DNA from: Raillietiella orientalis
Lineage: Eukaryota
Direction: 5' to 3'
Length of the DNA: 64,000 nt
Assembly (NCBI GenBank): GCA_036172245.1
Contig: JAYWIR010000049.1
Span: 124,001 to 188,000 of the forward strand
Made by a program: the position numbers and the translations under genes. A model generated the notes under the pieces. That model saw only the letters and a program-made list of their open reading frames with translations. It did not search any database and was not told the DNA's origin. Each line of letters begins with the position of its first letter. Position 1 is the first letter of the stretch. Below are positions 1 through 35,915 of this stretch, piece after piece.

Positions 1-596
1 GCGTTCGGCCCGGCGTGGCCGGCTTGCCTGTCGCGGGCAAAGGGGCGCGCGACCCCTTTTTCGACGCTCCGGTGGTCTTCCCGGGCGTGCCACCGCTATT
101 TCGCTCCGGAGCGAGAGCAAACGGAAGCGGCGGTGGTTTTGCAGCCTGCCCGATGTTATCGGCGGGCTGGGTCGCTCGGGACTTCACTGAAGCAGCCTGG
201 AGAAGCTTCTTGTCCTTTCGCGCGGGTTTTTGTGGTGCATTGCTCCGAGAATCGCCCGCGCAAGCGGACTTTTCACTTCTCCGCTGAGAATGCTCGTTCG
301 CGCCTGATTTCTTCCCCGACGACGGGGCGGATGGAGTCGGCGCGGACGGCGCTGTTGCGGGAAGGTTTCTCGCCCTCCTCTTTCGTTTCAGCTCAGCGCA
401 CTCGTTAATCGAGAGGCCGAGCAGCTTATAGTATCGGCAACTGCGTGTTGGTTACTTCCGCGGACGGTGGCCCTCCTTCCCGCAGTTGCCGCAAGCGGCT
501 GTTTGCCCTGCAGACCGGAGATAGACGACGACGTCACCGAGGAGGATCTGCGAAGGCATGAGCCTCCGGTCGTCCATGGTTACGCGCGCCGTCGCA

Positions 597-2707
597 ATTC
601 ACACCCGGATGTGCCGGGGCATTTAATTCTTGGAAATGAAAATACATGAAATATCGCGTGGCGAACTCGAAGGTTCACCACTCCAAAACAGCTTGCTGGT
701 TACCGGCTCCATGCCGGAGAGGTCCTTCCGATGCGCGGGGATGCGAAATAAATAAAAACAAAAAGCTCAAATGTAAGGGGAGGGGAACAAATGTTGCAGG
801 GTGGGAGGGCGGGAAAGGGATCACAGTGCGCGCGGAAAGGTACTCTAGATCCTGTTCAGGATCCGCACAAGCTAAGTCCTTTCAGCGCCTTAGTGGCGCC
901 ACTTGCAGACATTGCGCGCGAAAAGGCGAGTCCAGTGTAAGGCGTTGCCGGTTGGCTGACGCCTCCTTCTGGTGGCTTTCGAAGCCGCCACTATTCCTCT
1001 GATGCAACAGAGGACTGCTACACTAGCGGGCGGGGACAAGGCTTCACTACAGAAGAGGCGCCTTAAAACGTCCTTTAGACAGCATCCGCGCAAGTCCAGG
1101 ATCGCCGCGAAACGATCCCACAAAGGGCGGACGACTCTGCACTCCAGGAGAAGGTGGGGGAATGTTTCTGTTCCCCCACACCGGTCACAATTAGGATCCA
1201 CAGCCCCCGGGTGGTGTGGTGCAGGCGTGCTTTGAATGGTTATCCCCAGAGGACCACAAGCAACGCCACATCCTGCCACTTCAGGGCTAGGGATCCACTG
1301 TTCCAGGACGCTGGGGGCCACTACATCTCCTCCGGAGAAAGTCCGAGTAGCTCTCCCCAGGGTCGAATTCCGTTGAGCGGGACACTCGGAGTAGCAGCAT
1401 CCGCTAGCTGCCGAGATGTCAACGCCTTTATCGATTGTGTCCTGCCGCCTATGGTGCAGGACACGGTCCATTTCCCCTGCTCGCTACTGTCCCTGGCATT
1501 CACAAGGAAGGGCAGCACTGGGGCGAGGGGGGTTATCAAGGCCCACAGAAGCTTGTCGTGAGACTGCACGATCTCCTGCAGCGTCCAGCGGGCGTGCCTT
1601 TTCATACAAGTGTTCCTTGTGCCCGCCGGAACGTGGATCTTTTCCCAGGTGGAGACTGACTTGTGCAACCAGGCGGAGTAGCTCCCTGGGAGGCAGGAGA
1701 TCGAGGCGTTGTCCAGAACCGCAACGAAGATGCGTCGCAGCATAGACCCACAGTATGGTCTCCTGCAGACGCGCCCAGACAGAAACGACAAAAGTCCGCT
1801 GATTGCGCAGGCTCGTTGGGCCAGGAGGCGTGCTGGAACGCACCAAGGCGTGTCCCACAATTCCGCCGCAAGGGCGAGAGTCCTGAATCCAAGTTGTAGT
1901 TCCATGCGCTCCAGAGTAAGTACGCCAAGTCCACCGTCCTTACGTGGAGCGCACAAGTCTTTGAGCCTCACACGGGACCTCCCTTTGCCCCAAAGGACTG
2001 TCCTCAGGAGGCCCGCTGCTCGTTTCCGAATAAAATAAGGGGCGGGGCAAACAAAAAGTAGGGGGCGAAGGAGGGGAGCCGCCAACGCGTTCCACACCGC
2101 GGTCCGTTCCTGCAAGTAAAACTTGCCTTCTTGGAACCGACCAATCGCCAACGCTGCCTTTTGGAGAAGGTCGGACCAGACTTCTGCTGTGCAGAAGTCC
2201 CGCAACGGTACGCCGAGGTACTTGAAGCACCTGCCCGTGGGGATCCCCAAGCGGATCCAGTCCAACCGTCCAGCCCACGCCGAACCGACGAAGACCATGG
2301 ACGACTTCGCCCTGTTCACCTCCAGACCCGTCCCGCGGCGCAGCAACTCGAAGAAGTCCTCGAGTGCACTCTCCGGGGTGGACCCGGGAAGCAGCAGCAT
2401 AAGATCGTCTGCATAGGCAGACACGGCAGGCGTGCCAACACACGAGCACGGCAGGGCTGCCAGAGTTACCCTGTATGCCCTCAGCAACAACTCGAAGTAG
2501 ATGCTGAAGAGCAAGGGGCTCAGGCTGTCACCCTGCCGGATGCCGCGGCGTACGGGCACGCCGTACACGTGCCGGCCGCTCAAACCAATATTGATTGACG
2601 CGTTACGCCAGCAGGAGCGCAGGTAGGACTGGCGCACGGCCGGGAAACCCATGCGTTCCAGGAGCTCCAGAAGGAGACCCTGAACGACGCGGTCGAATGC
2701 TTTGTGC
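597..2707 (-). mobile_element. L1/Tx1-like LINE 'H', 3' part (RT, C-terminal zinc finger, 3' UTR)
   Basis: Minus-strand translation HKAFD...GIRQGDSLSP...AYADD...FKYLGVP, then CDRCGGTETFPHLLLEC; 3' end aattaaatgccccggcacatccgggtgtgaa at ~628-597; frameshifts and stops near the C-terminus. Confidence 0.92.
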
Positions 2708-2800
2708 GCTCCAGGGTGGAAGTGTTTTCTCGGTGCTCCTCGTGGCAGGAAGTCTCCCACAGTGCAAGCGTCGTGTGGTTCGGTGGTCGATCAGGCAGCG

Positions 2801-4295
2801 ATGCCTGACGCGAACACCAGGGATGGCCAGGGGGCAGCGGAAACGCCGCCCCTAGAGGCGATGGAGAGCCAGAAGGCGACGTTGCCGCCGCCCCCAGAAG
2901 CGATGGAGGTGGGGGCATCCGCCCCCACAGAATCGGTCCCCGCTGCAGCGCGGGCGTGGAGCGCCGTTGTCGGCGCCATCGCCTGCAGCCGCGGCGGAAT
3001 TGTCGACCTATGTGGAGGAGGGGTACAACCCTTCATTGTTCTACAAAGTAGGCAATTTATATTCTTTAGAGAGCGCGCGCGCCTTCTCGAAGGGCATGCG
3101 CGCTCTCGACGTGAAAGAGGAGGAGCTTAGCGCTCTGACCATCCGCAGCGGGGGTCAGTACGTTGAGGTCATCTGCAAACATGCATAGCTGGCCCAACGA
3201 CTGCTTAAAACTCCCGTTGTGATGGGGAAGCGCAGGCTTCTCCCCACTACGGCGGACCGCAGTATGGTGGTCCACCTTTTAGGCGTGACCGCGCCAATGC
3301 GCAAAGAACAGGTTCGCGCCGCTTTGGAACAGTTCGGAACGGTCCACGCGCAGTGGACGAAAGTAAGTACTTTCGAGGACTACACGGGGCTGCAACACGG
3401 CCTCACTGCTGCGCGCGTGACCGTTCGGGAGGGCTGCACTCTTCCCCACAAACTGGTGGTCGAAGGCGAAACCGTCGACCTCTGGTATGTGGGGAAGCCG
3501 AAATACTGTGGCTTCTGCAATACGTCGGGCCACCTCAAAAAGAGGTGTCCCAATGTGCAGTGCCAAGTATGCGGCACAATGGGCCACACGAGGGAGGTGT
3601 GCCCAAAAGCAGCAGTGCGGGTGGTTTCCAAGAGAAACCTTAAAAAACGCGCCCGGCTTCTGCAGAAAAGGCTGGCGGCGAAAGCTGCCGCGAAGGCTGT
3701 GCCACCCGCGCCCAAGACCCAGGCCGCACCTGAGACCCCGGAGACCAACGCCGAAAAAGTTGAGGGAGCCGGCCAGGAGACTGGGTGGCAAGTGGCAACG
3801 GCCAAAAAATCAAAGAAGGGGAGGAGGATGGAAAAGAAAATCGCCTACCAACAGAAGAAGAAAGAACAGGGTAGCGCGATAATTAAAGAGTGCAGCGTCG
3901 TTGTCGAACGCGTTCTCGATGTTGCCGAACGCTGCCGGAAAGAATTTGCCGCTACCGACGACCTCCCCTCTGTTGACACAGTCAACAGCGAGGGGAGCGA
4001 GCCGGCGGCGGCGTCCGTCATCGACACCACCATCGATGACGTAGCCTTCGCGCGAGCCGCGGAGGAGCTGGCAGCCTCGTTGCAGCCAGAACCCTCCAAG
4101 GCTGGCAAGAAGGCCGTAAGGCGTCCGGCCTCCCCTCAGGAGTCCCCCACTTCCGACCCCGAGGTGGAGGCCGGAAGCGCAGCCTCCGTTTCCACGGCAC
4201 CGCGCAAGAAGGCTGGACGTAAGTCCACAAAGCCAAGGAAGCTCGTCTCCCCAGCGAAGGGGAAGAGATGGCTTCCGCAAGCGAGGGTGCCATGA
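2801..4295 (+). pseudogene. A1 ORF1, gag-like nucleic-acid-binding protein, disrupted
   Basis: CGFCNTSGHLKKRC and CQVCGTMGHTREVC knuckles; frameshift near 2968 and TAG at 3186-3188 relative to the open A2 copy. Confidence 0.9.
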
Positions 4296-4473
4296 GCGTG
4301 GGAAACTCTCGGGACCCGTCGCCCGAGAGACTCCCACGCACGGACACGGAGGGGATGGAGGGGGTGGAGGCCGAACAGGTGCCTCAGGTGCCTGAGAAGG
4401 CCGAAACCCCCATGGACATCCCGCCCGCCTCGCAAGAGGAGGGCTCCCCCACACCTTAATCTTCCCAGCAGTA

Positions 4474-7400
4474 ATGCCGGGAATCTCCTCCCGCCGTCGT
4501 CTGCGCATCGCCGTTTGGAACGTGAACGGCATGACAGACGCCGGCAGGAGACGAGACATGGCCGCCCTTCTGGAGTCCTACGACCTTGCGCTGCTGCAGG
4601 AGATCCACGTGATCTCTGCAGAACAAGCGCAAGAGATCGAACGGATCTCCGGAGGGCGGCTATGGTACAGGTGTGGGAGAGCGAAAAGTTGCGGTGTCGC
4701 CTACCTGCTTCGGCCAGCCGTCGAAGCCGCGGCTCGGGGCGTGCAGTATGACGATCACGGTCGTGTCGGCCAGCTGACTCTCAGGTGGTCCGACTCGATC
4801 GATCTGATCGTCACGAACGTGTACGCACCGAGCGGCAATGACCTGAGGAACAGGAGGGCGAGGAAAGAGTTTTCCTTGCCCTCCGGCGAGAGTTGCTGAC
4901 CGAAGCAGGCGTGCGGAGTGCCCATCTGCTTGCAGGCGATTTCAACGTTCGCCTGAAACCAGATGAGCAGAATCCCGAGCGTGACCTTGTCAACGAGGTG
5001 TGCATGGCGGTGCACACCTGTAGTCATTTGGCCAGTGCACCGGGGATGGAAGACAGCATTGACCACTTGTTTCTTTACGAGCACATGTGCCCTCGCGTGG
5101 GCAGGCGCGGCAAGTTACCGTGCGAGCTGTCCGACCATCGCCCGCTAGTCCTCGAGATCCATCCGCGCGACGGGGGCCCCCCTCGTCAGCGTGGCGTCTC
5201 CCAGGGAACTGGCTGAAGCTCCCGGACGCGGCGGAACATCTCCGCACGTTCATACGGAGCTTCAGGCTGCGGACACTCCAGGATTGGGATCGCTTCAAGC
5301 GGTCGGTCCAGGAGTTCTGCGACCAGTTTCCTCTGCGCCGCCTACCTACGGGTTTTGGGACCAAGGTCCGTAACGAACGAGCCTACCTGCAGGCCCGTCG
5401 TTACGCCAGGACCCCCGACATCTGCAGGCTGGCGGAATACAAAGCGGGAGCTGAGAGGCAAGCCTGGCAGTCCGGATCGTCCAGCTTACTGGACGATCAG
5501 GGCCAGGAGCACTCGGCACCTGCCCAAATGCGCTTCCTGCTTCGGAGTTACTACTCCTCCCTGTATGCCAGGGCACCTCCGGAGAGGAACGTCTCACGAC
5601 TCCTGCTTCCGGAAGGCGCTCGAGCGATCGGGGAGGAGCAGAGAAAGACCCTCGACGAGCCTACCACGATGGTCGAGATCCTCTCGGTCATCGGAAAGCT
5701 CAAGAGGCGAAAGGCTCCAGGATAGGACGGCCTGCCCGCGGAGTTTTATCAAACTTTCGCGTCTGACCTTACCCACCTGGTACAGCAACTCCCCTTGCTG
5801 ATATGCGAAACAGGTGACGTTCCCGCCTCGTTTCGTTCGGCAAAGGTGCGGCTCCTCCCTAAGGGAGGAGATCTGAGGAGCATGAACAACTGGCGTCCCA
5901 TCACAATAGTGAATGCAGACGTCAAGCTGCTGCCTAAGGTTTAAGCAGAGCGTCTGGGACGGGTTGCCAGCATCCTCTTCAGCCCGGAACAGACCTATGC
6001 TGCTCCCGGGCGAAGCATGGAGGCGAACCTGTTCCACGCTTCCACCTCGCTAGAGCTCCAACATGAAAGGAGCTTGGTGCGCAGCCGGAATTCCGGTGCG
6101 TGCGCCGGCAAGGGGTTGGATGGTCGGGTGGGGGAGGGAGCCCTTGCGGTCGCAATCGACTTGCAGAAAGCATTCGATTGCGTCGACCAGAATCTTTTTC
6201 TGGAGCTTCTGGAACGCTAGGGCTTCCCGGCTTCATTAATGGCCTATCTGCGCTCCTGCTGGCGCGACGCGCTCATCAATGTTACTTTCAGCGGGCAGAC
6301 CGTGCACGGCGTGCCGGTGCGGCGTGGGATCCGGCAGGGAGACAGCCTGAGCCCCTTGCTCTTCAGTACCTACTTTGAGTTGGTACTGAGAGCGTACAGG
6401 GAACTCTGGCGCACCTGCCGCACGACTGTGCCGGTACGCCGGCCGTTTCAGCATACGCGGACGACCTTCTGCTGCTGCTCCCTATGTCCAGCCCGGCTGC
6501 GGCGGTCGAGGAGTCCTTCGACCTGCTGTATCGGGGAACCGGACTTACGGTGAACAGGGCGAAGTCGTCCGTGATGCCAGTTTGTGCGGCGTGGGCAGGG
6601 CAGATGGACTGCGTCCGTTTGGGTATCCCCACGGTGAGGTACTCCAAGTACCTTGGTGTGCCGTTGGGGGACTACTCCCCTGCGGAAGCGTGGTCCGGCT
6701 GCCTTCAAGAAGTAGAGACGGCGATCTGCCCGTTCCGAGGCGGCAGGTTTTTCCTGCCTGAACGGGCCGCGGTCTGGAACACGTTCGCGGCTCCTCTCCT
6801 CCGCCCCCTGCTATTTGTTTTCCCCCCCACAGAGAGGATTAAAAAGCGGACAAAGGACCTCCTCCGTATCGCCCTTTGGGGCAACGGGAGGGCCCGAGTC
6901 CGCTTAAAGGACTTGTGCGCTCCTCGTCGGGATGGTGGTCTGGGCCTCCTGACGCTGGAGCGGCTGGAGCTTCAGCTCCAGTTCCGCTTGTCGGCACTCG
7001 TTCCAGAGTTGTGGTGCACCTGTTGGTACGTCCCTGCACGTCTCCTTCTCCAGCAAGCCACCGGCAAGACGGGACTGACGTCGTTTCTTCCACTTTGTCG
7101 CCGCGTCAACCGATGCGGATTCCAGCTACGGAGGATGGCTGCGCTGTATCGGAAAAACCCAGGATTGCTCACCTGTCGCCCGTTTAACGGAAGTGCCTGG
7201 TTGCAGGAAACCGTTCGAACGTGGGGACGGTTCGGCATGCAACGCTCCAAACAGGAACGAAGGTTCTTGTTTGGGGGTTACAGAAGCTGGACGCTCCGCG
7301 AGAACCTGGAGGATCCAAAGAAGAGAGCGTGGGCAGGAAGAACCCCCCTAGCTGCTGCGCTGCCCTCCCTGATGGAAGATCTGGACAGCGATGTTGCGGC

Positions 7401-8052
7401 GAAGTGGGTGGTTACAATAACAATCTCCGGAAAGGAGAAGAAGATAGGAGAGTGGAAGACGGGCCAGTTAACAGATGCTGCGACCCCGAGTACGCCTCCC
7501 AATGGACTTCTGCGCTGGGGCGCGCCGCTCGATGTTCCCATTGAACATCTGAAGTGGCCCCCGGTGCTCATGAACACTTCCTCCCTCCATTTAAAATGGC
7601 AGGAGTCGGCTCTCCTGTTGCAGCACTGGGGACTTTCCTGCAACGCCCGCCGACACCACTGTACCTGGGGTGCGGTGGACCCCAATTGCGTCAGGTGTGG
7701 GGAACGGGAGTCCCTCCCCCACCTTCTAGTGGATTGTGTTGCCCTTCGGCCCCTTTGGTTTCTCTTTGCCGCGGCCATCGGAATCTCCTGCGGCAACCCC
7801 AGGGACGCACTGAAAGCCCTCTTCGTTGCCGACGCCCTGCGGCCAGCGTCCTCGATAGCAGCTTTGTGCTGCCTACGCGGGATCGTCACTGCTTGGAGCA
7901 AGGCTACGAGAGCACAACGCGACCAGGGTGCTATCCAGCCAGCCTCCCAGTTCCTGAGGAGGGCGTCCCGATGTCACCACCTGGATCCAGGAATACAGAA
8001 GGAGCTTGCCGGCATCCTGCAAAGGATGCAACGGCCCCACCAGCAACTGTGA
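4474..8052 (+). pseudogene. A1 ORF2, APE endonuclease-reverse transcriptase, disrupted
   Basis: WNVNG, LQEIH, NVYAP, GDFN, SIDH, LSDH; KAPG, WRPI, DLQKAFD, QGDSLSP, YADD, KYLG; CVRC..ESLPHLLVDC; several stops and frameshifts. Confidence 0.93.
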
Positions 8053-8272
8053 TCCCTTCCCTTACCCTCCCAACTTTTCTTTTCTTTTTTGTTTTGTTTT
8101 TTTTGTTTTTCCCCCTTCCCCCTGCTGCCGTGGTGGACCGTACCGGTCTGCGAACCGGTGACCCGGCAGGCTCTGTGTATCTCCGTGCGTGGCTGGAGCA
8201 ATGTTCCAGCCACCGCACGTCTTTGTAAAAGTTTATTTTACAATAAACGCCCCGGCGAAATCCGGGTGAAAA

Positions 8273-9105
8273 TCGAATGCTTCGTGCAAATCGATTGCGA
8301 CGGCAAAGGCTCCCGCCGAGTCCATCCCACCCTCTGCCCGATCTTCTTGGTCGAAGGGGGGAGCGAGGCTCCCTTGACCGTCCTGTGCAACGCGTTGCCG
8401 CAACTGCCACTATGAGCTGGCGAGGAGCAGGTTGGCCTCCATTGTTCGTCCGGGAACAGCATAGGTCTGCTAGGGACTCACCACGGAAGCGGCCACCCGC
8501 CCCAAACGCTCAGCCCACAACTTGGCATACAAATTTGCGTCCGCATTCACTACTGTGATGGGACGCCAGTTGCCAATGTTGCGTAAGTCTCCTTACTTCG
8601 GCAGGAGACGTACTTTAGCTGAGCGGAACGAGGCGGGAACTTCGCCGTGTTCGCGGATCAGCGCACTTAACCTGAGCACCAGGGGGGCTAGCTCTGGTGC
8701 GAAGCGATGGTAAAACTCCGCGGGCAGGCCGTCCTCCCCTGGTGCCTTCCTTCTCTTGAGCCTGTTGATGGCGGAGATGATCTCCGCCATCGTGAACGGT
8801 TCCGCCAATCTGGAACGGTCCTCCTCCTTGAGCGCGGGAGCACCATCCGGCAACAGGCGCTGCGCGAAATGGCGCTCAGGTGTTAGTGGCGCGTACAAGG
8901 AGGAATAAAACTCCCGCACGATGCGGCTTACCTGGGCTGGGCTGGAGCGTACTTGGCCCTGATGATCCAGCAGGCAGGCCGAGCCTGACTGCCAGTCCTG
9001 CCTCTCCGCCTCAGCCTTGAATTCAGCCAGGCGACGGACGTCGGGACGCCGGGAATAACGGCGCGCCTGGAGGTACGCCCGCTCGTTCCTGACACCATCA
9101 CCGAA
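8273..9105 (-). mobile_element. LINE 'H', middle fragment (linker to RT N-terminus)
   Basis: GFGDGVRNERAYLQARRY...KRRKAPGEDGLPAEFY...AVAIDLHEAFD; joins 2707 across the A1 TSD. Confidence 0.9.
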
Positions 9106-9204
9106 TCCCTTGGCGAGTGGACGTGTGTTTCCTTCGCTCCCGAGTGAGTCGACAGGAAGCGGTTTTTTCTTGTGCTGTTTGGTGTGGAACATCGTTGGTG
9201 TCCG

Positions 9205-10963
9205 ATGGCAGCGATGCCTGAGGACACCACGATGGAGGTAGGTGTGGGAGAGGCGTTTCATCACCCCTACAGCCTACAGAATCAGGGGCGTCCGCCCCGG
9301 AATCGCCCTCGCCGCTCAAGGGGAGGAGCTGGAGCGCCATGGTGGCCGCGCCGAGCGCGGAAACCATGGCCGAGATGGCGGCCTACCGGGCAGGTGGGTA
9401 CAAGCCCAGCTTGGTTTACCAGGTAGGCAATCTCTTTGACGGGCGAACTGCACGCGCATTTTCGAAAGCGCTGCAGAACGCCAACGTGTTGGAAAAGGAC
9501 CTTGACGGTCTATCCGTGCTCAGCAGGGGTCAGGGCGTCGAGGTTGTCTGCAAGGACATCACCTTGGCGCAAAGCTTGATAACCACCCCGCTGAACGTGG
9601 ACGGACGCAAGATCCTACCAGTCACGATGGACCGCTCCGTAGTGGTCCATCTGACAGGGATCACCAGCCGCATGACGCGGTCTGCGGTTGGTGATCAGTT
9701 AAGCAAGTATGGAGATGTTCACGCGCTATGGCCATAGGCCACAATCTTCGATGGCTACGATAGCCTTTTCGGAGGGCAGGCCGCCGCGCGCGTGACGGTG
9801 AAGGAGAGTGGGCTTCCCCACAAACTAGAGGTCAATGGCGAAGTCGTAGACCTCTGGTACGTGGGGAAACCCCGCTTTTGTGGCTACTGCAATGCAGTAG
9901 GACACTTGCGCAAGCGGTGCCCGAACATTGTGTGCCACTTATGCGGGGAGAAGGCCACGTACTCTGCGTATGCCCTAAACGCCCCACTCCAGTGCCGCCT
10001 GCTGCAAAGAAAGCACAGTCAAAACGCGGTAAACTGGTCGAAAGACCAAAAAGAGATACTGGCCGGCAGCAGCCGCTAGCCCCTGTTCCTCCCACACAGG
10101 CGTCGGAAGAAAAACCCTCCGAAGACGCGGGAGTCCAAGACGGCTGGCAGCTGGTCAAGGCCAGGAAGGAGAAAAAGGTGCCCCCCGCGGAACCCGCGAA
10201 AGCGGTAAAAAAGACAGCCGGCAAGGCGAAAAGACCTGGGCCGCGCTCTAAGACCATGCGGGAGTGTACGGTAGCACTGGAGCGCATAGCCGTTCCCGAG
10301 ATTGCCACCCGGGGCGACGAGCCTTCCCTCGCCGTTTCCGCCGCGCCCGAGGTTGGCGACGGCGAACCCTCTGTTTACACAGATGGTGAGCCGCGCGAAA
10401 TAGCGACGGTCGAAACCGAGGACGCCGCGTTCACTCAGGCGGCGGAGGAGCTCGCGGCCACGCAGGCCGAACGTGGGAACCCCTCGCGCAAGGCCGTGCG
10501 AAGGCCGGCACCCGCGAAAAAGGCCCCCACAGGTGAGTCGGACCTGGGGGCCGGAAGTGCATCCTCCTCCTCGGAGGCACCCCCCAGGAAGTCGGGACGC
10601 AATTCCCAGAAACCCAGGAGGAGCCTCCCCTCCACCAGCGAGGAGGAGAAGGAGGAAGGTAGCGGTAGCGTGGGAATCCCGGAGGGGGAACTCCCACGCT
10701 CGGAAGCCGTCGAGCCGGCCACCCCCATGGAGGAGGGTGAGCAGGGGGGCGAAGTCCTCCCTGCAGTCGCCGAGCCTGAACAGCCCGCCCCCATGGAAGA
10801 GGGCCAACAGGTAGGCGCGACCCCACCTAAGGGTGACCCCCTCGACGCGTCGTTACCCATGGAGAAGGGGGACCAGGTGCACGCAGCGCCTGACCCTCCT
10901 CCTCCACCTAGCGTCCCGCCCCAACAGGTGGCGGACGCCGCATCGCCATCTTCCCAGGAATAA
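9205..10963 (+). pseudogene. B1 ORF1, disrupted
   Basis: CGYCNAVGHLRKRC and CHLCGE-GHVLCVC knuckles, acidic/Pro-rich tail ending SSQE*; stop at 9735-9737 and frameshifts. Confidence 0.88.
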
Positions 10964-13900
10964 CACCTGGGCTCGCCAGTCGCCGTCGGATTCCCGCCGC
11001 CTGTTATAACGTCAACGGGCTGCGTGACGACGGTAACAGGCGAGATACGGCCGACACCCTGCGTGAGCTCGACCTGGCCCTGCTGCAGGAGATCCACGTG
11101 ATCACCGCGGCAGACGCCCAGGAGATCGAGACGATCGCGGGGGGCCGGTTGTATTGGCGGTGCGGCCTCCGCAATACCTGAGGGGTCGCGTTCTTCGTGA
11201 AGCCGGCCATCGACGCGGCCGTGAAGGGCGTGCGCTTCGATGACGACGGTCGGGTCGGTCAGCTGATTCTCTGCTGGTCCGACTCGATCGAATTGATCGT
11301 CACGAATGTGTACGCCCCCAGCGGTAAACAGGGATACAGCAACCGTACCAGGCTGCTCGATTCCCTGAAGCGCGACTGGCTGGCGGACACGAACGTGCGG
11401 AAGGCTCACCTGATAGCGGAAGATTTCAATCTCCGTCTGCTAACAGGTGAGCCAGAAACACTAGAGAACGCGATGAACGTGTTGTGCGCCGCCATGCGTG
11501 CGCGCAACTTGTTCGCGGGTGAGAGGGGAATGGTCCGCAGCATCGACCACGTCTTCCTCGACGCTGACCTGTGTTCACGGGTCGGCAAACGGGGGAGGGT
11601 TGCGTCGACGTTGTCGGACCATTCCCGGTTAATTTTCGAGATGCGGCCTCGTGACAAGGGACCGCCATCCAGGGATTGGCGTCTGCCGGGGGAATGGACG
11701 CGACTCTCAGGTGCGAAGGAATACCTTCGCGAATACCTGAGAGGTTTCACGCTCCGGAATCTCCAGGACTGGGACCTTTTTAAGGAATCGGTCCTCGAGT
11801 TCTGTGAGCAGTTCCCCCTGGATCGTCTGCCCCCCGGATTCGACGAGGGTGCTCGCAACTATCAGGCCTATTTACAGGCTCGTAGGTACGAGAGAACACC
11901 TAATGTCCGTCGCCTGGCCGAGTACTGCGCCGGGGCCGAACGCCAAGCCTGGGAATCCGGGTCGGCCAGCTTGCTGGACGACCAGGGCCTGGAATGTTCT
12001 TCCCCGGCGTCGGTACGGCATCTCGTGCGGAGTTTCTATTCCTCCCTTTACGCCAGGGAGCCCCCAGATCGAAACGCCTCTCGGCGCTTGCTTCCGGATG
12101 GCGCCCCGGCAATAGAGGAGGAGGAGATGGAAAGCCTCGACGAGCCTTTTACCACCGGCGAAATTCTCGGCGGTATCAAACGGCTCAAGAGGCGTAAAGC
12201 TCCAGGGGAAGACGGCTTGCCCGCGGAGTTCTTTCAGAGCTTCGCGGAAGAGCTGGCACCGCTGCTGCTTAAGTTGATCAGGCTGATGCGAGACGAAGGC
12301 GATGTTCCCTTCTCGTTTCGGTCAGCCAGAGTGAGGCTCCAGCCGAAAGGGGGAGACCTCAGGGATTTAAAGAACTGGCGTCCGATCACGATCGTGAATA
12401 CGGACGCCAAGTTGATCGCAGGGCTATGAACTTCGCGTCTGGGGCAGGTGGCAGAATCCGTAATTAGCCCGGAGCAGACTTATGCTGTTCCCGGGCGAAG
12501 TATGGATGCCAACCTCTTCTTCGCAAGGACATGGGTGCACCTGCAGAGAAGAGAGAAGAAAGGGATAGGGAAAGTCGGCAACCCCACATTGGGGCCGCCA
12601 GCCGGGCTGGGAAGGGACCCCCGGGCGGGGAAGGGAACCCTAGCGCTCGCAGTCGATCTCCACAAGGCGTTCGACTGTGTAGACCAGGAACTTCTCTTGG
12701 AGCTCCAGGGTCGCATGGGCATTTTACCCTCCCTGATTTCCTACCTGTGCTCTTGCTGGCGGAATGCGATAATTACCGTCTCATTCAGCGGTCACAAGGT
12801 GCATGGCATGCCGGGGCGGCGGGGCATAAGGCAGGGCGATAGCCTCAGCCCCCTGCCCTTCAGCACCTTCTTTGAGTTGGTGCTGAGAGCGTACAGGGTG
12901 ACCCTGGCCCCATTGCCGAGCTTGTGCCCCGGCACGTCCGCCGTTGCAGCGTACGTCGATGATCTTCTGCTCTTGTTGCCAATGTCCTCCCCGGCTAAGG
13001 CGGTCGGAGACTTCTTCGATCTGCTCAGCCGCGGGACCGGACTGCAGGTTAACAGGGCGAAGTCGTCGGTTGTGCCAATAGGTGCGGCGTGGGCAGGACA
13101 GCAGGACTGGTTCCGTCTGGGGAACCCTCGGCGAGGTGCTTCAAGTACCTTGGTGTGCCGTTGGGGGTCTACTCCCCAGCGGAAGCGTGGTCCAGCTGCC
13201 TCCAAAAAGTCGAAACGGCGATCGGCCCGTTTCTGGAAGGCAAGTTTCACTTGCCGGAACGGGCCGCGGTTTGGAACGCCTTCGCGGCCCCCATCCTCCG
13301 CCCCTTGCTTTTTGTTTGCCCCCCCACCGTGGAATCCAAGAAGAGGACGAAGGACCTCCTCCGTATCGCCCTTTGGGGCAAGGGGAGGCCCTGAGTCCCA
13401 CTGAAGGACTTGTGCGCTCCGCGTCGGGACGGCGGTCTTGGCCTCCTGACGCTGGAGCGCGTGGAGAAGCAGCTGCGGTGGCGAACCCTCGCCATCGCAG
13501 CGAAGATGTGGAGCACCCCTTGGTGCACTCCGGCCCGCCTCCTGGCCAGCCGTGTGTCCCGGTGCGATGGACTCGCTTCTTTTCTTCTCAGCCGTGGCCG
13601 GAAGATGCGAAGATGCGGCCTACTGCTCGGGCGCATGGCAACATTGGCCAAGGAGAACAGCTGGATGGTTTGCTGCCCCGCCAACTCCCCCGCCAGGCTG
13701 GAGGAGAATATTCGAACGTGGGCAGTAGTTAACCAGAGAAGCCACGAGACCTGGACTCGTCTCCGATGCAGCCCCTACGCCCGCTGCACGCTGCGGAATC
13801 TCCTGGAGAGTCCAGCAACATGCACGTGGGCAGAGACGACCTGCCTAGTTACGGCGCTACCCTTCCTAAGGAGGGCACTTCACAGCACCCGGACGCCAAG

Positions 13901-14548
13901 GTGGCAAGTCTCCTGCTGCATCGAGGGACGCGAGAAGTTGATCAGCGGCTGCACCACAGCAGAACTGGCCGACGCCACGACCCCGAGCGTCCTGCCGCGA
14001 GGATTATTAAGATGGGGCGAGCTGCTCGCCATCCCCAGGGATGAGCTGAAGTGGCCTTCGGTGATGAAGGAATCCAGGATCCTGCCACTCAAGTGGCAAG
14101 AGTCGGCGTTGCTTTTGTTGCACTGGGGTCTACCCTGCAACACGCGCCGCTTCCACTGGACGAGGGGAGCTGTGGATCCTGCATGTGCCAGGTGCGGGGA
14201 GCGGGAGTCGCTTCCCCACCTTATTGTGGATTGTGCTGCCCTCCGACCCCTTTGGGAACGGTTCGGGACGACCCTCGGTCTCCCCACGGGCAGCACCCCC
14301 AGAGACGTTCTTCGGCCCCTCTTCCTGAAGGACGCACTGCAGCCATCGCAGCCTTGTGCTGCGTCCGTGGCATCGTGGGGACATGGAGCGACGCCAACTA
14401 CGAAGGAGTGGGTCCACAGGCGAGGGATGTCATCCCGTATGCCAAACGCTTCTTTCGAAGAGCTGCCGGATGGCCCCAGCTGGGGAATATGCAGACTGAC
14501 CTCGAGGGCTTTGTTCGACGGATGGGCCCTCCCCACAGCGACCAGTGA
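10963..14548 (+). pseudogene. B1 ORF2 (APE-RT), disrupted, no AUG at the expected start
   Basis: YNVNGL, LQEIH, NVYAP, EDFN, LSDH, WRPI, DLHKAFD, QGDSLSP, YVDD, CARCGERESLPHLIVDC. Confidence 0.9.
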
Positions 14549-14753
14549 TCCCTTCCCTGCCCTACAAATTCTTTTTGTTTGTTTCTTTTTATTTTACTTT
14601 TTGTCTTATCCCCATCCCCCTTCGCTGTCGGGGAGTGCCACGCCGGGCTGCGTCCCGGTGTCCCGACAGGTCCTGTGTTTACGGCCGTGGTGGGGCCTTG
14701 TACCACGCATGTAAAGTTTATTAATAAACGCCCCAGGCGTACCCGGGTGATAA

Positions 14754-14878
14754 CACCGAAGCCCGGAGGAAGACGTTCCAGGGGAAACTGGTCGCAAAAC
14801 TCACGGACTGAGCACTTCATTTCGTCCCAGTCCGCGAGCGTCTGAAGCTGGAATCCTCGCAGGAAACAGCGTAGGTGT
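14754..14878 (-). mobile_element. LINE 'H', short upstream fragment, cut at ~14878
   Basis: EHLRCFLRGFQLQTLADWDEMKCSVREFCDQFPLERLPPGFG on the minus strand. Confidence 0.85.
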
Positions 14879-15937
14879 TCCTGCAGGAGACAGCTGACAC
14901 GTGGGCGAAGATTAATGGAAAGAATGAAGAGCTGTGGAACTGCCTGCGACGCGGCGCCTATTCCCGCTGCACTCTGCGAAAGATACTCCAGTGTCCAGCG
15001 AGAAGCACGTGGGCAGAGACAACCCCCCTACCTACGGCGATGCCCTTCCTGAGGAGGGCGCTCTCCAGCAGCCGCAAGCCTAGGTGGCAAGTCTCCTGCC
15101 GCATCGCAGGCAAGGAGAAGTTGATCAGCGGCTGGTCCACGGGTAAACTGGCGGACGCCAGTACCCCTAGTGTCCAGCCGAGAGGACTGCAGAGATGGGG
15201 CAAGCTACTCGGCATCCAGCCGGATGACCTGAAGTGGCCCCCGGTATTAATTCGATCTAGGATCCTCCCCCTGAAGTGGCAGGAGTCGGCGCTTCTGTTG
15301 TTGCATTGGGGTCTACCCTGCAACGCACGCCGCCACTACTGAACCAGGGGCCGTGTAGATCCTACTTGCATCAGGTGTAAGGAACGGGAAACTCTCCCCC
15401 ACCTCCTTGTTGATTGTGCTGCCCTCCGACCCCTGTGGGAACGTCTTCGTGCCTCCCTACGTATCCTGGAGGGCAGCCAGCCCAGAGACGTTTTTCGGCT
15501 TCTGTTCTTGCATGATGCCCTGCGTCCAGCAGCTGCCCTGGCTGCACTTTGCTGCGTACGCGGGATTGTGACGCGCTGGAGCATCGTCGGAAGACCGAAT
15601 CACGACAGGGATGCCGTCGTACTTGCAGTCCGCTACTCGCGGATTGTGACCAGATGGCCCCACCTGGAGATTATATGGACGGACCTCAAGGGCATCCTGC
15701 GAAGGGTGGACCCTCCTCTCAGTAATCAGTGATCCCACCCCAACCCTCCCAAATCTTTTTGTTTTTATGTTTTATTTTTCTTTTTGTTTTTCCCCCACCC
15801 CCTTCCGCTGCCGAGGAGAGTCGCGCCGGTCTGCGTACCGGCGACCCGGCAGGTCCAGTTGAGTTGGCCGTAGTGGGGCCTCGTACCACGAATTATAGAG
15901 AATTTATAATAAACGCCCCGGCGTGACCGGGTGGCAA
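14879..15937 (+). mobile_element. LINE 'C', 3' fragment with complete 3' UTR
   Basis: LKWQESALLLLHWGLPCNARRH, CIRCKERETLPHLLVDC; ends aataaacgccccggcgtgaccgggtggcaa. Confidence 0.9.
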
Positions 15938-18900
15938 CAATCAACTTGGCGTCCGCATTCACTATTGCGATGGGACCCCAGTTGTTCATGCTCCTCAGAT
16001 CTCCTCCCATAGGGACGAGCCGCACCTTTGCCGAACGAAACCAGGCGGGAACGTCACCTGTTTCGCGTATCAGCAAGGGGAGTTGCTGTACCAGGTGGGT
16101 AAGCTCAGACGCGAAAGTTTGATAAAACTCATCGGGCAGGCCGTCCTATCCTGGAGCCTTTCGCCTCTTGAGCTTTCCGATGACCGAGAGGATCTCGTCC
16201 ATCGTAGAAGGCTCGTCGAAGGTCTTTCTCTGCTCCTCTTCGATCGCTGGAGCGCCTTCCGGAAGCAGGAGTCGTGAGACGTTCCTCTCCGGAGGTGCCC
16301 TGGCATTCAGGGAGGAGTAGTAACTCCGCAGCAGGCCGCGGATTTGGGCAGGTGCCGAGTGCTCCTGGCCCTGATCGTCCAGTAAGCTGGCCAATCCGGA
16401 CTGCCAGGCTTGCCTCTCTGCTCCCGCTTTGTATTCCGAAAGCCTGCGGATGTCGGGGGTCCTAACGTAACGACGGGCCTGCAGGTAGGCTCGTTCGTTA
16501 CGGACCCCGGTCCCAAAACCCGTAGGTAGGCGGTGCAGAGGAAACTGGTCGCAGAACTCCTGGACCGACCGCTTGAAGCGGTCCCAATCCTGGAGTGTCC
16601 GCAGCATGAAGCTCCGTATGAACGTGCGGAGATGTTCCGCCGCGTCCGGGAGCTTCAGTCAGTCCCCTGGGAGACGCCACGCTGACGAGGGGGGGCCCCT
16701 GTCGCGCGGATGGATCTCGAGGACTAGCGGGCGATGGTCGGACAGCTCGCACGGTAACTTGCCGCGCCTGCCCACGCGAAGGCACAGGTGCTCGTCAAGA
16801 AACACGTGGTCAATGCTGTCTTCCATCCCCGGTGCACTGGCCAACAAATTACAGGTGTGCACCGCCATGCACACCTCGTTGACCAGGTCACGCTCGGGAT
16901 TCTGCTCATCTGGTTTCAGGCGAACGTTGAAATCGCCTGCAACCAGATGGGCATTCCACACGCCTGCTTCGGTCAGCCAGTCTCGCCGGAGGGCAAGGAA
17001 AAACTCTTTCCTCGCCCTCCTGTTCATCAGGTCCTTGCCGCTCGGTGCGTACACGTTCGTGACGATCAGATCGATCGAGTCGGACCACCTGAGAGTCAGC
17101 TGGCCTACACGATCGTGATCGTCGAACCGTACGCCGTGAGCCGCGGCCCCGACGGCTGGCCGAAGCAGCTAGGCGACACCGCAACTTTTCGCTCTCCCAC
17201 ACCTGTACAATAGCCGCCCTCTGGAGATCCCGTCGATCTCTTGCGCTTGTTCTGCAGAGATCACGTGGATCTCCTGCAGCAGCGCAAGGTCGTAGGAATC
17301 CAGAAGGGCGGATATGTCTCGTCTTCTGCCGGCGTCTGTCATGCCGTTCACGTTTCAAACGGCGATGCGGAGACGACGGCGGGAGGAGATTCCCGGCATT
17401 ACTGCTGGGAAGATTAAGGTGTCGGGGAGCCCTCCTCTTGCGAGGCGGGCAAGATGTCCATGGGGGTTTCGGCCTTCTCAGGCACCTGAGGCACCTGTTC
17501 GGCCTCCACCCCCTCCATCTCCTCCGTGTCCGTGCGTGGGAGTCTCTCGGGCGACGGGTGCCGAGAGTTTCCCACGCTCATGGCACCCTCGCTTGCGGAA
17601 GCCATCTCTTCCCCTTCGCTGGGGAGACGAGCTTCCTTGGCTTTGTAGACTTACGTCCAGCCTTCTTGCAAGGTGCCGTGGAAACGGAGGCTGCGCTTCC
17701 GGCCTCCACCTCGGGGTCGGTAGTGGGGGACTCCTGAGGGAAGGCCGGAATCCTTACGGCCTTCTTGCCAGCCTTGGAGGGTTCTGGCTGCAACAAGGCT
17801 GCCAGCTCTTCCGCGGCTCGCGCGAAGGCTACGTGATCGATGGTGGTGTCGATGACGGACGCCGCCGCCGGCTCGCTCCCCTCGCTGTTGACTGTGTCAA
17901 CAGAGGGGAGGTCGTCGGTAGCGGCGAATTCTTTCCGGCAGCGTTCGGCAACATCGAGAACGCGTTCGACAACGACGCTGCACTCTTTAATTATCGCGCT
18001 ACTCTGCTCTTTCTTCTTCTGTTGGTAGGCGATTTTCGTTTCCATCCTTCTCTCCTTCTTTGATTTTTTGGCCGTTGCCACTTGCCACCCAGTCTCCTGG
18101 CCGGCTCCCTCAACTTTTTCGGCGTTGGTTGCCGGGGTCTCGGGTGCGACCTGGGTCTTGGGCGCGGGTGGCACAGCCTTCGCGGCAACTTTCGCCGTCA
18201 GTCTTATCTGCAGAAGCCGGGCGCGTTTTTTAAGGTTTCTCTTGGAAACCACCCGCACTGCTGCTTTTGGGCACACCTCCCTCGTGTGGCCCATTCTGCC
18301 GCATACTTGGCACTGCACATTGGGACACCTCTTTTTGAGGTGGCCCGACGTATTGCAGAAGCCACAGTATTTCGGCTTCCCCACATACCAGAGGTCGACG
18401 GTTTCGCCTTCGACCACCAGTTTGTGGGGAAGAGTGCAGCCTTCCCGAACGGTCACGCGCGCAGCAGTGAGGCCGTGTTGCAGCCCCGTGTAGTCGTCGA
18501 AAGGACTTACTTTCTTCCACTGCGCGTGGACCGTTCCGAACTGTTCCAAAGCGGCGCGAACCTGTTGTTTGCGCATTGGCGCGGTCACGCCTAACAGGTG
18601 GTCCACCATGCTGCGGTCCGCCGTACTGGGGAGAAGCCTGCGCGTCCCCATCACAACGGGGGTTTTAAGCAGTCGTTGGGCCAGCTCTGGATGTTTGCAG
18701 ATGACCTCAACGTACTGACCCCCGCTGCGGATGGTCAGAGCGCTAAGCTCCTCCTCTTTCACATCGAGAGCGCGCATGCCCTTCGAGAAGGCGCACGCGC
18801 TCTCTAAAAAATATAAATTGCCTACCTTGTAGAACAATGAAGGGTTGTACCCCTCTTCCACATAGGCCGACAATTCCGCCGCGGCTGCAGGCAATGGCGC

Positions 18901-19167
18901 CGACACAACGGCGTTCCACGCCCGCGCTGCAGCGGAGACCGATTCTGTGGGGGCGGATGCCCCCACCTCCATCGCCTCTGGGGGCGGCGGCAACGTCGCC
19001 CCCAGGCTCTCCATCGCCTCTAGGGGCGGCGTTGCCGCTGCCCCCTGGCCATCCCTGGTGGTCGCGTCAGGCATCGCTGCCTGATCGACCACCGAACCAC
19101 ACGACGCTTGCACTGGGGGAGATTTCCTGGCACGAGGAGCACCGAGAAAACACGTCCACCCTGGAGC
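15938..19167 (-). mobile_element. LINE 'A2', 5' 3.2 kb of a family A copy, interrupted by C
   Basis: Closely similar to A1 2708-~5930; same 5' start gctccagggtgg; contains ORF1, APE and the start of RT. Confidence 0.95.
17578..19074 (-). CDS. A2 ORF1, open (~498 aa), two CCHC knuckles
   Basis: Uninterrupted frame from MPDATTRD to LPQARVP*. Confidence 0.85.
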   Translation of the reverse strand: MPDATTRDGQGAAATPPLEAMESLGATLPPPPEAMEVGASAPTESVSAAARAWNAVVSAPLPAAAAELSAYVEEGYNPSLFYKVGNLYFLESACAFSKGMRALDVKEEELSALTIRSGGQYVEVICKHPELAQRLLKTPVVMGTRRLLPSTADRSMVDHLLGVTAPMRKQQVRAALEQFGTVHAQWKKVSPFDDYTGLQHGLTAARVTVREGCTLPHKLVVEGETVDLWYVGKPKYCGFCNTSGHLKKRCPNVQCQVCGRMGHTREVCPKAAVRVVSKRNLKKRARLLQIRLTAKVAAKAVPPAPKTQVAPETPATNAEKVEGAGQETGWQVATAKKSKKERRMETKIAYQQKKKEQSSAIIKECSVVVERVLDVAERCRKEFAATDDLPSVDTVNSEGSEPAAASVIDTTIDHVAFARAAEELAALLQPEPSKAGKKAVRIPAFPQESPTTDPEVEAGSAASVSTAPCKKAGRKSTKPRKLVSPAKGKRWLPQARVP

Positions 19168-21363
19168 GCACAAGGCGTCCTACTGCGTGAACCAGAAGCT
19201 GTTCTTGGAGCTTATGGAACGCCTTGGGTTTCCGGCGCAACTCCTGCTGTATTTGCGCGCGTGCTGGCGCCACGCGCTAACCTGCATTACTTGCAGCGGC
19301 TGCCGCGTGTACGGTATTCCCGTGCGTAGGGCATCCGACAGGGCGACAGCTTAAGCCCGTTGCTCTTTAGCATCTTCTTCAAGTTGGTGCTGAGAGCGTA
19401 CAGGCTGACCCTGTCTCACTTGCCTTGCTGCTCTCCTGGTACGCCTGCCATTGCCGCCTACGCTGATGACCTGCTTCTTCTGCTCCCCATGTCCACTCCG
19501 GCGTCCAGTTTCGAGGATTTCTTCGACCTGATTCGTCGGGGGGCGGGCGTGAGCCTGAACAGAGAGAAGAGCGTGTTCGCTCCTGTGGGTGCGTCGAGGG
19601 AGGGGCAGTCCGACTGGATCCGCCTGGTCATCCCCACGGGCGGGTACTTTAAGTACCTTGGCGTTCTGTTGGGCGCTGTCGGCGCAGCCGATCCTTGGGC
19701 GGACTGTCTTCAGAAAGCAGAGTTGGCCATCAGTCCGTTCATTAACGGCAAGTTTACCCCTTAGGAACGGGCGACTATTGGAAACCCCTTCGTGGCCCCC
19801 CTCCTCCGTATTCTGTTTTTTGTTTTGGACCCCCCCTATGCGGCAAAACAGCGGTCTAAACGCTTGCTCAGGAACGCTCTCTAGGGTCCGGCGAGATCCA
19901 CGATCCGCGATAAAGATTTGGTTGCTCCGCGTCGGGATGCTGGTTTGGGTATCCTGACAATGGAGTGAATCTGCCTTCAGCTGCAGTTCCGACTGCTGGC
20001 ACTGTGTGCCCAGCTATAGACATCTCTCCTGTGTGTGCCAGCACGCATTCTCCTGCGGAGATGCGCCGGCAGCGGAGGATTTCTCTCGCTTTTGCCGAGC
20101 ACCCAATACAGGAAGCGTTGTTTTGGGTTTCCATTGCGGCAGTTGACCGCACTTCTGGAAGTTCATTCGTGGATCTCCTGCCGCCCAATGAACTTTGAAG
20201 CTTGAAGGGAGGAGTCTGTTGAATGCTGGGCGGCGTTCCAAGGAATACGCCCTGAATATCTTCGCTGCCTGCGCCAATTTTTTCCACGATCCTCGGAAGA
20301 AGTACTGCAGGACGAGGTGAAGTTTTCTACCCTGGCTTCCACGCTTCTTTCCGCAGCGCTGTATGCCCTTAGTGCAGGAAACGGCAGTTGCCAACCTGCG
20401 AGGTGGGAGGTTTCCTGCACGATAGCAAAAAAAACCAAACTCATTGGCGCCTTTAAGACGAGCGAGTTGGCGGACCGCGCCACTCCTCGTGTTACTTCAA
20501 AGGGACTCCTCCGGAGGGCACAAGAACTTGGAGTCACCCCCGAAGAACTTGTAGTCCCCCCACAGTGTGTCGACAGTTCGCTGCTCCCCCTTGCTTGGAA
20601 ACAAGCCGTGTTGCTTTTCGTTCACTGGGGTTTTCAGTGCAAAGAGTGTTGGCATCGTGACTCCGGGGACTTGCTTCTGCGAACTGCGTTCGGTGCGGAT
20701 CGACGGAGTCGATTTCGAACCTACTTCTGGACTACGGTGTCTTACAAGGACCGTGGCGCAGACTGGCAACAGAACTCTTGCATCCCGTGGACACCGCAAG
20801 AGACTTGCGGCGACGATTCTTCACGCCGAGCGTTCTGTGTATAAGCGCAAGGATTGCAATCATCGGTTGCATACGCGCGATAGTTTCCGTCCGCCAGGCG
20901 CTGATAATCAACAAGCAGCACCATGAGGTGATCGGCAAAGCATCTTCCTATATTTAAGGAGCCGCCAGATGCCCTCAATTGACCGAGGATACAAAAAGGG
21001 ATCTCGCTAGCATACGCCGGCGGTTTACAGACGCTACCCAACAGCTCACCCGGTGAACCTTTCCCCTCGCCCCCTTCAAATGTTTTTTTTTTTCACTTCC
21101 GCCCTATTAGGCTCCGGAACATTCTAGGTGCTCTTTATTTGAATCCCCGTGAGTACGGAACTTCACCAAAAACTCGTTACCCCTCTTTCCAAATTTAGAT
21201 TTTTGTTTGTTATCCTCCTATTCCCTCAGTGTTGTTGGAAGCGGTTTGTTAACCAGGCCTGTGTGCCGGTAACCTCTCTTTGCTCCTTGTCGTTTCTTTG
21301 GTTGAAGACATCGTCTTTGAGCGGTCTATTTTTAATAAACGCCCCAGCGTGACCGGGTGAAAA
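19168..21363 (+). mobile_element. LINE 'X', 3' half of a divergent, degraded family
   Basis: HKASYCVNQKLFLELMERLG, AYADD, FKYLGV, LAWKQAVLLFVHWG; ends aataaacgccccagcgtgaccgggtgaaaa. Confidence 0.88.
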
Positions 21364-24300: not shown

Positions 24301-24699
24301 CTGCGTCCGAGGCATCGTGGCGGCATGGAACGACACCAGCAAGTAAGGAGTGGGTCAACACGCGAGGGATGTCATCCCATATGCCCAACGCTTCTTGCGG
24401 AGAGCTGCTGGATGGCCCCAACTGGGGAATATACGGATGGACCTCGAGGGCTTCCTTCAACGGATGGGCCCTCCTCTCAGCGAACAGTGATCCCTTCCCT
24501 GCCCTCCAACCTCTTTTGTTTGTTTGTGTTTTTATTTTTACTTTTGTTTTTTCCCCATCCTTTTTCGCTGCCGGGGAATGCCACTCCGGGCAGCGTCCCT
24601 GCGTCCCGGTAGGTCCCGTGCATAAGGCCGTGAGCGGGGCCTGGTACCGCAATTGTAGAGTTTTTATTAATAAACGCATCGGGCGTACCCGGGTGGCAA
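21364..24699 (+). mobile_element. LINE 'B2', B-like ORF2 from the APE (G)DFN motif to the 3' end
   Basis: Colinear with B1 11423-14753; WRPI, DLHQAFD, QGDSLSP, YADD; ends aataaacgcatcgggcgtacccgggtggcaa. Confidence 0.92.
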
Positions 24700-27400: not shown

Positions 27401-27402
27401 AG

Positions 27403-28985: not shown

Positions 28986-29009
28986 ATGACAGAAGTCCCG
29001 GGGAAGTGT

Positions 29010-35482: not shown

Positions 35483-35915
35483 AGCAGAGAGTCAGCAGCT
35501 TCCTCATCAGCGTTCTCTTGGGAATATCTGTGCTCATGAGTCCCATCCTGAAAAGGATCCCTACTTCCGTGGTGTTTGGGATCTTCCTCTACCTTGGTGT
35601 GATCAACATGCAGGGAACTCAATTGTACGATCGCCTGAAACTTTTGCTCATCCCCATGGAGCACCACCCCAATGTTCAATACGTGCAGAAGGTAACGAAT
35701 GTCCATCACGGTCGCTCCCGCTCACTGTTCCCTTGCTCCAGATAAAAACCTGGAGGATGCACCTGTACACCTTCATTCAGCTGGCAGGCTTCGCGCTGTT
35801 GTGGATCGCCAAGTCCATCACCATTCTGGCACTCGCGCTGCCCTTGTTGCTCATCTTCCTGGTCGGGCTGAGGTTCTCGCTCGTGTACATATTCAGCAAG
35901 GAGGAGCTCGAAATA
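35483..35915 (+). CDS. SLC4-family bicarbonate/anion transporter, two C-terminal exons (35483-35691, 35742-35915); partial
   Basis: EQRVSSFLISVLLGISVLMSPILKRIPTSVVFGIFLYLGV..QLYDRLKLLLIPMEHHP / IKTWRMHLYTFIQL..PLLLIFLVGLR..FSKEELEI; 50-nt GT-AG intron. Confidence 0.88.

Follow-up and report, generated by a model that had tools for sequence, protein, structure and literature searches.

Two copies of one retrotransposon family broken into the same codons of two different hosts can come from one insertion that was later duplicated or from two insertions that found the same base, and the question here is which of these produced a pair of junctions in Raillietiella orientalis. The stretch analyzed (hereafter the window) is 64,000 nt long and comprises positions 124,001 to 188,000 of the forward strand of contig JAYWIR010000049.1 (GenBank assembly GCA_036172245.1). 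The elements are long interspersed nuclear elements (LINEs), and the pair, A1 and A2, belongs to a family that we call A. A preliminary description of the window had placed both copies, in antisense, at one nucleotide of the HKAFD motif in the reverse transcriptase (RT) coding sequence of two host LINEs, H and X, and had proposed independent events. We find that A1 and A2 occupy homologous bases of H and X, that a second family (B) repeats the pattern at a second site, and that duplication of a broken host does not explain the A pair. The explanation that we prefer, tentatively and at somewhat below even confidence, is family-specific, sequence-directed targeting of fixed sites inside other LINEs.

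A1 (2708-8272, + strand) is a full-length family-A LINE of 5,565 nt, antisense in host H, with a 5’ untranslated region, an open reading frame (ORF) 1 encoding two CCHC knuckles, an apurinic/apyrimidinic-type (APE) endonuclease, an RT, a 3’ hairpin and the tail GAAAA. It is bracketed by two copies of a 15-bp target-site duplication (TSD). The left copy, TCGAATGCTTTGTGC (2693-2707, +), is the reverse complement of the H codons H-K-A-F-D of RT motif A, and the right copy (8273-8287, +) differs from it by one mismatch (14/15 identical). When up to 2 mismatches are allowed, TCGAATGCTTTGTGC has three matches in the window, where 0.16 are expected by chance (0/100 shuffles gave three); the third match, on the minus strand, is A1’s own unoccupied motif-A site (6163-6177 of the + strand, the reverse complement of which is 14/15 identical to the TSD). 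Host H is unbroken across A1: in BLAST alignments to A1 coordinates, 8271-8317(-) corresponds to 3426-3472 and 1781-2707(-) to 3456-4381, the overlap of the two alignments being the duplicated 15 bp. With the insert taken out, the restored H frame reads ...AVAIDLH(E/K)AFDRVVQG, which is RT motif A; the corresponding motif of A1 is AVAIDLQKAFD. A1 is a clean insertion by target-primed reverse transcription (TPRT), antisense in H and directly after the HKAFD codons. It has since acquired private deletions of 2 nt and 1 nt at 2967, 4869 and 5176.

Three parts of H remain, all on the minus strand. The downstream part (602-2707) carries the RT from motif A to the element’s own 3’ hairpin and tail at ~602; the middle part (8273-9109) lies between A1 and the family-B copy E2 and ends with the motif-A codons; and the most upstream part kept (14754-14881) is 5’-truncated and head to head with the 5’-truncated end of another LINE, T2.

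A2 (15942-19167, -) corresponds to positions 1-3222 of A1 with 95.6% identity over 3,226 columns in BLAST (140 substitutions and 5 indel columns), and its 5’ terminus is identical to that of A1. At this terminus A2 joins host X (19168-21364, +), a diverged LINE RT that begins at the same motif-A base (the motif now reads HKASY) and continues to its own 3’ hairpin and tail; X is decayed, with a frameshift and stops. The first base of X, 19168, aligns to A1 coordinate 3456 and is homologous to the base occupied in H. The junction strings that the preliminary description quoted for A1 and A2 are present in the sequence where it placed them, the 15-bp TSD around the 5,565-nt A1 is as it reported, and its central statement, that family A sits twice at one nucleotide of the HKAFD motif in two hosts, holds, the X and H joins both falling at A1 coordinate 3456. 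In A2, ORF1 stays open over 533 codons and encodes two CCHC knuckles, and the copy carries three private nonsense codons. A genetic code with TGA read as Trp was considered, as two A2 TGAs fall at conserved Trp positions, but A1 and the LINE G have TGG there, and we take both to be mutations private to A2. At its other end A2 is cut short by T2 (14882-15941, +), a 5’-truncated LINE whose 3’ tail adjoins the antisense A2 at A1 coordinate ~3222; this is a third antisense junction, at another position.

If A2/X were a duplicated copy of A1/H, hosts and inserts should be similarly diverged. They are not: at the junction the identity steps from 11/15 in the flank to 14/15 in the insert over a 15-nt span, from 65/100 to 96/100 over 100 nt and from 98/150 to 144/150 over 150 nt. 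The H and X flanks align in register for ~590 nt with 1 gap and are 63-70% identical, compared with 95.6% for A1 and A2. Synonymous divergence (dS) between H and X is ~1, and their dN/dS is 0.26 over 303 codons and 0.30 over the first 195 (Nei-Gojobori), indicating that they diverged mostly under purifying selection, as working LINE lineages. These ratios indicate that H and X separated while they were functional LINE lineages, rather than after A had broken them. Their 3’ contexts are also unrelated, the 3’ end of H at 602 adjoining unclassified DNA and that of X at 21364 adjoining E3. A simple segmental duplication is ruled out by the identity step, the purifying selection between H and X and the unrelated 3’ flanks. 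The preliminary description had stressed how strongly the flanks differ while the inserts are alike, and had named this same comparison as the one that could overturn its proposal; H and X turn out to be much less alike than A1 and A2, and its preference for independent antisense events gains support from the H/X dN/dS, the 3’ flanks and the second pair described below. A twin-priming 5’ inversion, with A and H as one element, was likewise discarded, given that A1 runs full length to 8272 with a TSD and that the inverted parts differ in divergence.

The second same-site pair involves family B. E2 (9110-14753, +), a family-B LINE of full length, lies antisense in H between the two copies of an 11-bp TSD (CACCGAATCCC at 9099-9109 and CACCGAAGCCC at 14754-14764). 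E3 (21361-24699, +) is a 5’-truncated copy of the same family (84.7% identical to E2 over 3,347 columns) whose 3’ tail adjoins host G (24700-27390, -); G is the 5’ 2.7 kb of a LINE and is cut at CACCAAATCCC, which we call site S2, by the 3’ end of E3. That end lies at the base homologous to the E2 site in H, the host-sense sequences being GGGATTTGGTG| in G vs GGG(A/C)TTCGGTG| in H, and the insert is antisense in both hosts. In element coordinates S2 is ~820 nt upstream of the motif-A site (S1). The flanks of E2 and E3 are ~71% identical. The dN/dS ratio (omega) between E2 and E3 is 0.36-0.48, which points to distinct active sub-lineages as their sources. Their 3’ junctions are identical, and both ends are kept by E2 only. 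Family B repeats the family-A pattern at a second site. The first 258 nt of E3 (21361-21618 vs 11420-11677) are 95% identical to E2 while the remainder is 82-87% identical, which suggests a mosaic or a conversion tract at the E3 5’ end.

The anatomy of the elements, the two TSDs, the identical junction bases and the differing histories of inserts and hosts are thus all observed in the window. There, family A is found at S1 in 2/2 copies and family B at S2 in 2/2, each pair having one member with both ends; the 5’ junctions of A1 and A2 are identical, as are the 3’ junctions of E2 and E3. With 7 LINE-in-LINE junctions and a uniform null, the probability of two or more exact coincidences is 1.8e-6; two were seen.

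The site in X now matches the TSD of H at 11/15 positions. Relatives of X could be read in contigs from one independent public run (0.26 of sampled words; 336 short contigs over 1-20000), and these have T and G at 19179 and 19181, giving TTCGAC (codons AFD) compared with TCCTAC in X. Since the relatives encode AFD, the X site was probably 13/15 like that of H when it was hit (a count made by eye). The only other match to the X 15-mer in the window, with 3 mismatches, is E2’s own uninterrupted site. The same contigs over 1-20000 gave no usable view of other family-A junctions and no verifiable bridging of A2/X. Joints in them are mostly switches between homologous LINE copies, and in one contig A1 position 5931 is linked to an A-rich, T2-like stretch of the opposite strand, the short side of this joint being only 36 letters long.

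The elements behind these junctions belong to a GC-rich nest that occupies positions 1-31.4 kb of the window and consists almost exclusively of L1/Tx1-like LINEs (APE endonuclease and RT). From 602 to 31,375 the sequence is made up of at least 12 LINE copies or fragments, lying on both strands, and nothing else recognizable separates them (BLASTN and tblastx with A1 and E2 as queries); GC content is ~60% in the nest vs 44-50% in the adjoining DNA. As in self-nesting LINE clusters, newer copies have entered older ones and the composition is LINE-only, with two nested insertions that have TSDs. Those TSDs, of 15 bp (A1) and 11 bp (E2), are hallmarks of TPRT. The APE-type endonuclease is N-terminal in ORF2 (Pfam Exo_endo_phos, E = 9.8e-8, A1 4396-4899), and a WNVNG motif opens the domain in A1 and G. 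Pfam recovered RVT_1 in H, E2 and E3 (E = 1e-14 to 1.5e-18) and a sub-threshold zf-RVT in the C-terminal part of E2; the A1 RT ORF (6379-8052) gave no Pfam match at E ≤ 0.01, and A1 and E2 share 65-74% amino-acid identity in the pre-RT and RT region (tblastx). Among 5.8 billion proteins searched, all the relatives recovered were distant; 122 of the 8,000 scored candidates had E ≤ 1e-3, and the best matches were ~26-35% identical, with the domains RVT_1 and Exo_endo_phos and in some cases zf-RVT. The nest elements thus appear, from these comparisons, to be L1/Tx1-like LINEs without close described kin in the protein collection searched.

Sequence-directed targeting could have operated as follows. 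Family A would be an autonomous-type LINE, and A1 and A2 would be the products of two separate TPRT events, each of them an antisense entry into a pre-existing, diverged LINE. The host sense strand would be nicked directly after ...GCATTCGA (codons A-F-D of motif A) and would prime cDNA synthesis on the hairpin and tail; a cut of the opposite strand 15 nt upstream would then account for the duplicated 15 bp and for the 5’ junction common to A1 and A2. Recognition of the motif-A sequence would be by the endonuclease, perhaps helped by target-derived read-through sequence on the RNA, a role described for R1/R2. The target sequence would persist in rival LINEs because it encodes a catalytic motif. 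Recognition would extend beyond a hexamer and differ between families, with the second family (E2, E3) acting likewise at its own site and leaving its 11-bp TSD, and repeated events of this kind could have built the 31-kb GC-rich, LINE-only nest. We infer the order of the nicks, the length of the recognized site and any role of RNA. Guidance by RNA-DNA homology (R-loops) to the most conserved stretches was rejected, as sites S1 and S3 rank just 872 and 727 of 4,711 windows in conservation.

A bolder version of the targeting model has A and B as true sequence-specific families directed, in antisense, at coding motifs of rival LINEs, A at the RT motif-A codons and B at the upstream site, such that each insertion would provide a safe harbor and at the same time knock out a competitor’s polymerase. 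Because it codes for the active site, the motif-A sequence could not be lost by mutation in rivals that are still active, and a read-through ‘site memory’ might let ORF2-defective A copies home in trans. We regard this version as doubtful.

Several observations weigh against targeting. The family-A comparison rests on two copies, both in the window, and that of family B likewise on two. Neither the A2 3’ junction nor a second TSD copy is present in the window, and only its 5’ junction, i.e., the second-strand cut, is documented. The motif-A site is empty in 3/5 of the copies that have one (A1 itself, E2 and E3), and conservation of the motif-A 15-mer between families is moderate (rank 872/4,711 windows). 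Three of the eight LINE 3’ ends adjoin a LINE in sense orientation (X to E3, M1 to M2 and J to G). Furthermore, A1 and A2 have a common in-frame TAG in ORF2 (A1 5723-5725, A2 16146-16148; KAPG*DGLP), where H, E2 and E3 have GAG (Glu) in KAPGEDGLP; from this shared nonsense codon, the common source of A1 and A2 was probably already ORF2-defective. Omega between A1 and A2 is 0.66 in ORF1 and 1.09 in the ORF2 part. A2 could then have originated either by mobilization in trans or by gene conversion, the latter requiring that X had already received an insert at that base; the 3’ hairpin common to all families would permit trans-mobilization. Finally, a short motif adjacent to the insert 3’ end, YCRAAT in insert orientation, matches the sequence at S1(H), S2(H) and S2(G) and is present at just three places in A1 and three in E2.

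This last point leads to the strongest of the alternatives, which we consider possible but on the unlikely side: independent insertions with weak specificity. Here the inserts would follow a degenerate motif, ~YCRAAT by the insert 3’ end (ATTYGR| on the nicked strand), that is scarce in LINEs of 60% GC, and regional landing in the nest, through chromatin or retention, would make repeat hits expected. The motif is TCGAAT at S1(H), CCGAAT at S2(H) and CCAAAT at S2(G), and one of the three YCRAAT sites in A1, like one of the three in E2, is the site used. Its orientation within LINEs (14 antisense vs 6 sense over six copies, summed by hand) agrees with the antisense bias, and the AT-richer half of the window contains the motif more often than the other half (80 vs 30). 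More distant LINE fragments do occur outside the nest. YCRAAT was, however, derived after the fact from the very sites to be explained. The X site, now TAGGAC, does not fit it (relatives of X have TCGAAC), and the fit is poor at the T2, M1, H and J junctions. A short motif also leaves unexplained the identical second-strand cut at the 5’ junctions of A1 and A2, as well as the assortment by family, with both A copies at S1 and both B copies at S2. Relaxing the motif gives 8 candidate sites in X and 12 in G, for which a rough estimate of the joint chance is a few percent.

An origin of A2 at the DNA level appears improbable. A2 would in this case derive from A1 by gene conversion, ectopic recombination or template switching, acting on an older insert in X or through an H/X crossover at the junction. 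The shared TAG and the neutral-looking divergence of A1 and A2 fit such an origin, and so do their arrangement (~10 kb apart and inverted), the 3’ truncation of A2, a form that retrotransposition does not produce, and the other rearranged junctions in the nest (H|T2, J|M1 and M2|N). If A2 was converted onto an A-like insert that X already had, though, that insert must itself have arrived independently at the same base. An H/X crossover would need to hit 6 identical bases at the junction out of ~590 nt at 65-70% identity, and sequences this diverged are poor recombination substrates. A DNA-level origin also leaves the E2/E3 pair, with its separate active sources, unexplained. The least credible alternative is coincidence or artefact, with X a 5’-truncated LINE that landed head to head on the A2 5’ end or A2/X an assembly chimera; two other head-to-head joins of 5’-truncated copies (H|T2, J|M1) and a perfect inverted repeat on the same contig that may point to assembly problems speak for it, but a truncation exactly at the A1 TSD boundary base has a chance of ~1 in 5,565 (uniform estimate) and an assembler has no reason to make a base-exact join of 96% and 65% identical segments, and we judge it very improbable.

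The 3’ ends in the nest are common to all families. Eight LINE 3’ ends share AATAAACGCCCCGG...CCGGGTG followed by a short A-rich tail, with no poly(A); seven were found by pattern and that of J by reading. The hairpins are at 8242-8272, 14723-14753, 15908-15940, 21334-21364, 24669-24699, 29582-29611, 602-627(-) and 27402-27433(-), with 7 conserved pairs and no covariation. T2, E3, J, M1 and H have intact 3’ ends and are 5’-truncated. A metagenome scan with the conserved 3’ motif gave 13 loci, which were chance matches; 0/13 aligned to the nest. We also considered that the 3’ end of H lies in the ‘AVA’ codons of another RT and dropped the idea, the left edge (1-601) having given only weak, inconsistent tblastx matches.

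Simple insertions do not account for the arrangement at the H|T2, J|M1, M2|N and X|E3 junctions. Some of the joins are head to tail: the J 3’ tail lies ~12 nt upstream of the G 5’ end, which is full-length (27380-27410, -), the X tail adjoins the 5’-truncated E3 (21355-21370) and the M1 tail adjoins M2 (29605-29625). These are either tandem arrangements, as described for Zepp/Cnl1 arrays, or template jumps. Two others are head-to-head joins of 5’-truncated LINEs with 3’ ends outward, H|T2 (14875-14890) and J|M1 (28980-29000), which may reflect two priming events at one break, or deletions.

Outside the nest, fragments of more distant LINE relatives lie at 45486-45885(+), 48100-48763(+), 48871-49591(-), 33446-33553(-) and 62756-62839(+); they have 32-54% amino-acid identity to E2 and are situated in AT-richer DNA, some of them inside a large palindrome. 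This palindrome is an inverted repeat of 11,410 nt (34532-45941 and 49136-60545) whose arms are 100% identical, with a spacer of 3,194 nt. The arms continue outward at 84-93% identity (32469-34548 vs 60530-63844) and contain a HCO3- transporter exon (35415-36152, Pfam E = 5.6e-14). We take the repeat to be either a palindrome of very recent origin or an artefact of fold-back during assembly. The CpG observed/expected ratio is 0.84-0.99 across 1-64000, nest and flanks alike, with no CpG-depleted part and hence no sign of methylation-driven CpG decay in the window.

Should the specificity prove real, the known targets of LINEs would include, besides multicopy genes of the host, the codons for the active site of rival LINEs, a case of parasite-against-parasite targeting. 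Targeting would also give a mechanistic account of the growth of LINE-only, GC-rich nests of the Zepp kind, and would make available for study APE-type endonucleases whose targets are defined stretches of 11-15 bp. Should a short nick motif alone be responsible, the locus would be an ordinary nested LINE cluster shaped by the scarcity of target sites in GC-rich DNA.

Self-nesting LINEs are the nearest counterparts in cluster form. Zepp and ZeppL, from green algae, are LINEs of the L1 type that integrate into copies already present, producing nested clusters with many 5’-truncated 3’ ends (PMC8226300), and Zepp-type clusters of 1.5-42.3 kb form local GC peaks (61% vs 53%; PMC3446292). The nest described here resembles them in being >31 kb long and LINE-only, in its ~60% GC beside DNA of 47% GC and in its tandem 3’ ends. 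It differs in that the portions of these accounts dealing with the clusters give nesting and tandem arrays, and not base-exact, family-specific sites in RT-coding sequence or an antisense orientation. The likeness to Zepp is one of cluster form; the best protein matches of the elements here are only 31-35% identical. Cnl1 of Cryptococcus is a LINE that prefers insertion within itself and forms nested arrays (PMC9942834); its arrays are tandem (sense) and subtelomeric, whereas the clean cases here are antisense, cross-family and inside coding motifs.

Site-specific LINEs are the counterparts in mode of insertion. The R1Bm endonuclease is reported to cut both strands of its target specifically (PMC1919474). 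In the published descriptions at hand, the targets of site-specific LINEs include rRNA, snRNA and tRNA genes, microsatellites, telomeres and a DNA transposon. Tx1L is the element that targets another (DNA) transposon. R1, R2, Tx1L, Utopia, Keno and others each target a conserved multicopy sequence, joining it at an exact base and leaving a target duplication or deletion of constant size, a mode of insertion that families A and B may share. In contrast to R1, R2 and Tx1L, the putative target here would be catalytic-motif codons of rival LINEs, the own family included, and with 2/2 copies strict specificity is at most suggested. A literature search, not an exhaustive one, found no report of LINEs aimed in antisense at fixed bases in the RT coding sequence of other LINEs. 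By its junctions, then, the nest appears to work like a site-specific LINE, and in its form it looks like a Zepp-type nest, a comparison that we offer as one of likeness and not of membership.

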